Shown piece by piece: positions 8,755 to 8,897 of a stretch of DNA of 64,000 nt (position 1 is its first letter; each line of letters starts with the position of its first letter). The DNA lies in NCBI GenBank assembly GCA_963808235.1, contig CAWEEQ010000004.1, positions 64,001 to 128,000 of the forward strand, written 5' to 3'. The notes below the pieces were generated by a model, which was not told where the DNA came from, searched no databases, and saw nothing but the letters and a program-made list of their open reading frames with translations. This stretch comes from an uncultured delta proteobacterium. Lineage in GTDB: Bacteria; Desulfobacterota; Binatia; Binatales; Binataceae. The position numbers and the translations under genes are program-made.

Positions 8755-8838
8755 TCAGGCGTTCTTTCCGCAGCAGTCCTTGTACATCTTGCCGGAACCG
8801 CACGGACACGGGGCGGACGGATTAGGTGTGCTCGCCAT
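8755..8838 (-). CDS. 27-aa stand-alone SEC-C motif peptide [27 protein letters not shown]
   Basis: Translated by hand (below ORF-track cutoff); [13 protein letters not shown] motif; AAGGAGGTG RBS; sigma-54 site upstream. Confidence 0.85.
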   Translation of the reverse strand: [27 protein letters not shown]

Positions 8839-8881
8839 ATATATAGCACCTCCTTCTTAGTCGAGAGCGTAATTAAATCGA

Positions 8882-8897
8882 CGCAATCGGCATGCCA
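8882..8897 (-). promoter_or_regulatory. sigma-54 promoter
   Basis: TGGCAT-GCCGA-TTGCG. Confidence 0.7.

Follow-up and report, generated by a model that had tools for sequence, protein, structure and literature searches.

The locus described here bears, in a simple form, on the role of the metal-binding tail of SecA in the many bacteria that lack SecB: what does a SEC-C knuckle do when it has a gene of its own? Within the window, by which we mean the whole 64,000-nt stretch of DNA analysed, which comes from an uncultured soil bacterium, positions 8755-8838 of the minus strand hold a 27-codon coding sequence, running from ATG to TGA, for a stand-alone SecA-like metal-binding knuckle with C11, C13, C22 and C23 as its ligands. 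The peptide has the ligand spacing CxCx8C(H/C) that defines SecA-like metal-binding domains (10.1101/613315, PMC6620043), in the form C11-P-C13-x8-C22-C23 and matches the Pfam SEC-C model (PF02810) over profile positions 3-19 of 19 with 31.5 bits and an E-value of 1.6e-7, above the cut-off of 20.4. S15, the counterpart of E. coli SecA Ser889, is invariant in the peptides of the family described below, and Y19, the counterpart of Tyr893, is nearly so, being replaced by F in one of them. In its own genome the micro-ORF lies in a stop-to-stop frame of 33 aa, and a Shine-Dalgarno sequence, AAGGAGGTG (8847-8855, minus strand), is followed by the ATG 8 nt further on. A preliminary description of this stretch had reported an unannotated 27-aa stand-alone SEC-C peptide with a strong ribosome-binding site, its own promoter and a sigma-54 site about 45 bp upstream. 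The peptide is present exactly as quoted there, and the observation of a microprotein ORF with a ribosome site and a sigma-54 element is confirmed as real.

So short a frame could also be the truncated remnant of a longer gene, a risk to which the preliminary description had itself pointed, naming relatives' short ORFs and dN/dS as the way to find out. A six-frame search of all 47 genomes of the genus, using a profile (A2) built from 12 such peptides, gave 24 full-length matches of 53-68 bits in 23 of the genomes, every one of them in an open frame of 33-108 aa, and in these 23 genomes the start, the stop and the motif of the type-1 micro-ORF, the type found in the window, are conserved. SecA tails reach only about 30 bits with the A2 profile in the same 47 genomes. 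One type-1 copy (G049:C6:76634-76717), from a genome that is 63% complete, carries an in-frame TAG and is possibly a pseudogene or a sequencing error. Start and stop codons are conserved across 36 distinct loci of the wider family, which rules out a truncated remnant of a longer gene, and a GGAG(G)-type site precedes the ATG in nearly all of them. For 11 distinct coding sequences of 28 codons, dN averages 0.084 and dS 1.09, giving a ratio of 0.077, and the numbers of variable sites at codon positions 1, 2 and 3 are 7, 7 and 20 of 28. Ungapped identity is 84% in the coding sequence, compared with 37% just upstream of it and 26% further upstream. Due to the low dN/dS ratio, the identity far above that of the flanks and the codon-position pattern, both a decaying fragment and an overlapping plus-strand ORF can be ruled out; the ORF in question, at 8493-8825 on the plus strand, was rejected as the real gene since the distribution of variable sites agrees with the reading frame on the minus strand. 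Judged by these signatures of selection, the locus is a genuine, conserved gene for a stand-alone SEC-C microprotein.

Microproteins of 24-28 aa form a family that is specific to the Binataceae among the genomes searched. In a sample of 401 genomes of the class (E <= 1e-9), they were found in 32 of 94 genomes of the family, representing 10 genera, in addition to the genome of the window, and in none of 306 genomes from 19 other families; the 32 include two genomes flagged as unpublished, G636 and G777, the second of which is the sole basis for genus g286, and without both the count is 30 of 92. In a sample of 401 genomes of the phylum (E <= 1e-7), the only matches in frames below 90 aa were the two micro-ORFs of the window's own genome, where both the class and the phylum search scored at most 20 first-look candidates per genome and may have missed weak or divergent short members. 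The peptides fall into three types. Type 1 comprises 26-28 aa, begins with MA(N/S) and ends with (R/K)DCCGK.., type 2 comprises 24-26 aa and is MPQPNDKCPCGSGKAYKDCCGKSK-like, and the third is a GSLK variant. An alignment of 29 family peptides shows P, C, C, G, S, K, C, C and G to be invariant, and G, Y and D to be nearly so. The genome of the window (4.59 Mb, 93% complete) has three SEC-C matches, namely the end of SecA (a 902-aa frame), the micro-ORF of the window and a micro-ORF of 24 aa. This second stand-alone copy, MQNPNDKCACGSGKAYKDCCGKGK, lies on the same contig as the window (L003 1492-1566, minus strand, corresponding to G000:C4:1980948-1981019) and has a GGAGG site and no -24/-12 element; 8 of the 47 genomes of the genus have this shorter type of 24 aa. 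All of the matches listed in a contig search for related loci, at least 80 in number, were SEC-C tails in open frames of at least 170 aa and thus have no bearing on stand-alone forms. We also note that the public metagenome mini-proteins P0003, P0008, P0041, P0072, P0142 and P0143, of 42-51 aa, consist of two tandem SEC-C motifs.

The gene is ordinary in kind, as it encodes a SEC-C domain and has orthologues that are already annotated automatically. Among 1.84 billion representative proteins, a search with the profile found 2348 matches at E <= 0.001, and 32 of the best 150 were of 60 aa or less. Among them, P0004 (28 aa) is RefSeq WP_423969268.1 [Candidatus Binatus sp.] and is identical to the peptide of loci L036, L037 and L038, orthologues of the window gene that share 78% identity with it; P0013 (24 aa) is WP_422298292.1 [Candidatus Binatus sp.] and bears the same automatic name. 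When the search was limited to proteins of 13-93 aa, 7028 matches were obtained among 8000 candidates scored; many of the unnamed matches lie on short contigs and are possibly fragments. SEC-C proteins of 24-49 aa with a name given by NCBI come from, among others, the Binataceae, Limisphaerales, Chthoniobacter, Blautia, Chloroflexota, Limnochordales (Limnochordaceae), Clostridia and archaeal metagenome-assembled genomes. A homology search with an over-extended orthologue of 42 aa returned two proteins only. The word 'unannotated' used in the preliminary description would be correct at most locally. The exact 27-aa peptide is absent from a collection of 15 billion proteins, but same-genus orthologues are RefSeq entries, those of 24-28 aa having been annotated by NCBI. 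In the literature on the SEC-C motif or domain, judged by title, we found no paper on stand-alone SEC-C microproteins. What is added here is the distribution in one family among the genomes searched, the strong purifying selection, the complete sigma-54 unit and the lack of SecB matches in the family sampled, and the regulatory link is the new part. The locus also illustrates that a gene of 24-28 codons can form a complete regulatory unit, including a promoter, an upstream element, a ribosome site and a terminator, and that gene callers easily overlook genes of this kind; Prodigal, for example, ignores genes shorter than 90 nt.

How is such a gene controlled? A -24/-12 element of the sigma-54 type, TGGCATGCCGATTGCG (TGGCAT-N5-TTGC; 8882-8897, minus strand), has the GG and GC dinucleotides at the exact spacing and is close to the consensus TGGCAC-N5-TTGCW. 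The 3' end of its core, TGGCATGCCGATTGC (8883-8897, minus strand), lies 44 nt before the ATG, in line with the distance of about 45 bp given in the preliminary description, and would place the transcription start near 8871. No sigma-70-like site was found between 8300 and 9400. The 11 sequencing runs listed for positions 6000-11500 are all recorded as DNA, with no RNA run among them, and 10 contain part of the stretch. The pattern TGGCAY-N5-TTGC occurs seven times in the 64-kb window compared with 0.26 times expected, and seven occurrences were reached by none of 100 shuffles. The claim that the gene has its own promoter gains from the comparison of relatives, since a GG-N10-GC element is kept 53-72 nt before the ATG in all 21 distinct type-1 loci. 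Nineteen of these fit the strict pattern; L168 and L170 in the type-1 alignment carry TGGCAG-N5-TTGC. The element is conserved at orthologous positions while the identity of the flanks is 26-37%, and the genome encodes a sigma-54 factor, as rpoN was recognized with 211 bits to Sigma54_DBD. A sigma-54-type promoter thus appears to drive the microprotein gene. This wiring is specific to type 1, being present in all loci examined from genus g1 and in type-1 loci from genera g265 and g273. Type-2 loci mostly have no sigma-54 element; a few carry TGGCAC-N5-ATGC, others sigma-70-like boxes. Nor do they share synteny, with no neighbour common to more than 4 of 21 loci. Because type-2 relatives mostly lack both the sigma-54 element and synteny, a link to a stress regulon would be specific to the genus and has little bearing on the ancestral function of the peptide.

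Upstream of the promoter, at 8975-8998 (minus strand), lies a second element, of the type TTACAnn[G/C]TT, whose position is conserved in relatives. Measured from the start of the -24 element, it begins 77-80 nt upstream in 13 of the type-1 loci listed; in the window, L035 and L043 this distance is 89-97 nt. In L036 and L037 the element recurs 64 nt before a second sigma-54 site that precedes a different gene. It may be the site of an activator or of a DNA-bending protein. No upstream motif common to every sigma-54-like site in the window was seen by eye.

A candidate for the activator is encoded nearby. The gene at 15498-16859 (minus strand) has the Pfam architecture REC, Sigma54_activat and HTH_8 of an NtrC-type sigma-54 activator. 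An orthologue (E <= 1e-150) was found in 23 of the 23 type-1 carriers of the genus and in 8 of 24 non-carriers, which include the unpublished genome G023; as related genomes are not independent, this comparison overstates the support and is to be read as suggestive, not as a statistical test. In 10 of the 23 carriers the micro-ORF follows the orthologue on the same strand, at a distance of 0.2-6.7 kb. This co-occurrence makes the NtrC-type activator a candidate regulator of the microprotein promoter. Pfam matches further identify three BON-domain proteins, a CsbD protein, a DUF3309 protein, a receiver-domain protein and a histidine kinase (11393-13207) around the micro-ORF, as well as a YflT-like protein and another BON protein further along the window, and several of these neighbours recur beside orthologous micro-ORFs. 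Relaxed -24/-12 matches precede the CsbD gene, a BON gene (7143-7442), the DUF3309 gene and other small membrane ORFs. These findings suggest that the window contains a sigma-54-driven island or regulon of a general-stress-like kind, where the word stress follows the usual annotation of Pfam families of the BON, CsbD and DUF3309 type. If so, a regulon of this sigma-54-driven, general-stress-like kind would here be outlined for the first time in uncultured Binatia.

Several side observations concern the same region. Sigma-54-type sites were seen in the window at 7495-7510, 8368-8383, 10490-10505, 17106-17121, 18464-18479 and 19350-19365, and further along at 31123, 32645-32660, 34390, 40458-40473, 40654 and 48555; many of them are followed, after 40-90 nt, by the start of a BON, CsbD, DUF3309 or small membrane ORF. 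Just before the DUF3309 gene, a hydrophobic ORF of 26 aa (MRYAVAWILGVPLSLIVIWYLVAHTM; 8250-8330, minus strand) has an AAGGAGA site and a sigma-54-like element, and a similar tail occurs in L037. In many relatives, the next gene past the terminator of the micro-ORF encodes a Lys/Arg-rich protein of 66-68 aa, MP(P/T)RKS.GRKYSKKAG..., for example in L043 (2661-2867, minus strand) and L037 (about 3190-3388, plus strand).

The proximity of activator and kinase genes also allows a different reading of the peptide, as a feedback connector that would tune the output of the NtrC-type activator, or of the histidine kinase encoded nearby, by binding to it. Small connector proteins such as PmrD and MgrB are known from other systems, and the presence of the activator gene in every carrier, where in ten cases it precedes the micro-ORF on the same strand, immediately or at short range, together with the kinase gene, would fit such a role. 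However, type-2 members of other genera have no activator neighbour and mostly no sigma-54 element, eight non-carrier genomes keep the activator, and we found no precedent in the literature consulted for a SEC-C knuckle that binds an AAA+ activator. We therefore regard a feedback connector as improbable.

In our preferred explanation, the locus would be a monocistronic gene in which a sigma-54 promoter precedes a short leader with a strong ribosome site, followed by 27 codons and a 3' hairpin. The last of these deserves closer attention. After the stop codon, a long GC-rich hairpin is predicted at 8663-8745 (minus strand), the counterpart of an intrinsic terminator in relatives; a consensus hairpin of 22 pairs, four of them with compensatory changes, is followed by a T-run in 14 relatives. 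The hairpin of the window is longer than theirs and has no T-run, and this counts against the explanation that we prefer. The terminator loop CGUCCUCCCCCCGU (L037 3105-3125; columns 46-58 of alignment A4; about 8700-8720 in the window) is more conserved than the stems, as is the CCUUCCCCC stretch right after the stop codon, and the variant hairpin of the window likewise exposes C-rich stretches. Downstream of the hairpin, two tandem copies of a 17-nt unit (GGTCGAATGGCTATTGC and GGTCGAATAGCTATTGC) occupy 8504-8537 (plus strand). The hairpin loop CCUCCCCCC and the CCUUCCCCC stretch are complementary to GGAGG ribosome sites. Besides coding for the peptide, the transcript may serve as a regulatory RNA.

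One could go further and regard the peptide as irrelevant, with the ORF being a Cys-rich leader for attenuation at the hairpin, or the transcript a small RNA that acts through its C-rich unpaired motifs. A strong hairpin about 17 nt past the ORF, followed by genes on the same strand, and the conserved stretches complementary to GGAGG would fit such an arrangement. Against it stands selection over the whole domain sequence, with the dN/dS ratio given above, in a peptide that matches a fold known to be autonomous, whereas a leader peptide or attenuator would have a freely varying peptide and a fixed downstream operon, and we find neither; the downstream gene varies among loci and in the window has a sigma-54-like site of its own. 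A search of Rfam with 8300-9300 gave no credible family match, the sole hit being symR (E 0.75, 19 bits compared with a threshold of 61). A reading without the peptide is thus very improbable, although the RNA could have a role alongside the coding role.

If the peptide matters, what could it bind? According to the preliminary description, a free SEC-C peptide could act as a decoy that titrates the export chaperone SecB. In E. coli the metal-binding domain (MBD) of SecA is described as the docking site for SecB (PMC6620043), and PDB entry 1OZB contains a 27-aa SecA peptide together with SecB. SecB (PF02556), however, gave no match in the genome of the window, which is 93% complete, and none in 101 genomes sampled from the family, 69 of them of high quality, while the same search was positive in 4 of 14 control genomes, including E. 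coli and Caulobacter. The failure to find SecB makes the decoy idea untenable, and we give it next to no credence. The preliminary description also named a ribosome decoy and a minimal Zn/Fe buffer as candidate roles. With the gene, its conservation and its regulatory signals established, the interpretation in the preliminary description as a whole is partly supported.

As no SecB was found in this family, the ribosome surface near the exit tunnel would be the most plausible docking site. The SecA MBD is reported to bind 70S ribosomes and to crosslink to uL23; 52 species without SecB retain it, and its docking has been proposed to relieve SecA autoinhibition (PMC6620043). The SecA of the window's own genome likewise keeps an MBD tail. 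Two observations speak against a simple transfer to the microprotein. The same study reports a low ribosome affinity of the isolated MBD (PMC6620043), which counts against a ribosome-docking reading. In addition, the tail of the genome's own SecA reads KKYKRCH where the microprotein has KMYKDCC; relative to this tail, the microproteins replace His by Cys and the second Lys by Met, Leu or Pro, and an Asp stands almost invariably before CC. As the microprotein is non-basic where its own SecA tail is basic, the two may not share the same partner.

The fold of the product can be judged from SecA peptides of similar size. Isolated SecA zinc-domain peptides of 22-27 aa in the PDB (1TM6, 1SX0/1SX1 and 1OZB, the last with SecB) match the family profile with E-values of 1.5e-7 to 1.8e-6. 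A synthetic peptide that comprises the 27 C-terminal residues of E. coli SecA is reported to be structured by zinc and to bind and prefer iron, to which preference Ser889 contributes, with Ser889 and Tyr893 described as highly conserved (10.1101/613315). Since SecA peptides of 22-27 aa fold and bind metal and the Ser and Tyr residues are kept here, we infer by analogy that the microprotein is an autonomously folding Cys4 knuckle (CxCx8CC) around Zn(II) or Fe(II). The peptide might then be a metal or redox device, which upon induction by stress buffers or hands over zinc or iron, or whose thiols serve as an oxidant switch or sacrificial reductant. Four invariant cysteines within 24-28 aa, the position of the gene in an island of stress genes, the reported co-purification of SecA-like MBDs with iron and their preference for it (10.1101/613315), and the reported ROS-sensing by the C-terminal SEC-C cysteines of YchJ (PMC13377102) all agree with such a device. 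Yet a peptide with a single site would buffer poorly unless it were very abundant, no signature of a metal or redox regulator was seen and the promoter is of the sigma-54/NtrC type. The conservation of P, G-S-G-K, Y, D and G-K to the same degree as the cysteines points instead to a binding surface. Overall, we consider a metal or redox device unlikely, yet a serious competitor.

Docking of an induced free knuckle is the reading that we favour, if tentatively and without calling it probable. In the genus, which is probably Candidatus Binatus, the type-1 paralogue would have been placed under an NtrC-family activator and be co-regulated with genes of the general-stress type (BON, CsbD, DUF3309 and small membrane proteins). 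Once the activator is switched on, a free SecA-type metal-binding domain would be produced, which could occupy the docking site used by SEC-C tails, most plausibly on the ribosome near the exit tunnel. Occupation of this site might in turn tune the engagement of SecA with the ribosome, or translation, during stress. One might speculate further that in the Binataceae the SecA tail has become a free, stress-inducible, trans-acting factor, which competes with the SecA tail for the ribosome site when the activator fires and acts as a brake on, or re-router of, co-translational export or translation in dormancy-like stress, with the mRNA perhaps doubling as a regulatory RNA by way of the conserved C-rich, anti-Shine-Dalgarno-like terminator loop. 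This extended scenario we regard as rather doubtful. Independently of the mechanism, an independent SEC-C gene under strong purifying selection in a lineage in which no SecB was found speaks for the knuckle having its own partner or its own chemistry, and the microprotein offers a synthesisable probe of 27 residues with which to find it.

Several known systems share features with the microprotein. The closest in architecture are the RefSeq and GenBank entries of 24-49 aa named 'SEC-C (metal-binding) domain-containing protein', which have the same stand-alone form as the window gene and carry automatic names only, with no function, regulation or expression attached. Free-standing metal knuckles are also known from Haloferax volcanii, whose one-domain zinc-finger micro-proteins, such as HVO_0758, are described as smaller than 70 aa with C(P)XCG motifs, and some of which are reported to be needed for stress adaptation (PMC6562870, PMC10716476, PMC11241148). 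The Haloferax micro-proteins are archaeal, belong to another fold family without sequence relation to the microprotein and, as described, have a pair of C(P)XCG motifs whereas the micro-ORF has one CPCG, so that the analogy is functional only. The E. coli and Salmonella proteins YchJ (UPF0225) and YecA likewise have a SEC-C motif ending in CC and are reported to bind iron or zinc, and the C-terminal SEC-C cysteines of YchJ have been described as a ROS-sensing disulfide switch (PMC13377102). Their bodies, however, comprise 130-220 aa, whereas the microprotein is the motif alone, and its best NCBIfam matches, to the SEC-C ends of these proteins, cover only the last 17-23 positions of the full-length models, with 18-28 bits compared with cut-offs of 68-204. 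The SecA MBD itself (SEC-C, PF02810) has the same CxCx8C(C/H) knuckle with G-S-G-K and the conserved Ser and Tyr residues, and the microprotein equals in size the 22-27-aa peptides derived from it. It differs in its last ligand, which is Cys and not His, and at the basic positions of SecA, which are taken by Asp and a non-basic residue. Above all, the SecA MBD comes at the end of an ATPase of 900 aa, whereas the microprotein has a gene, a promoter and a terminator of its own.
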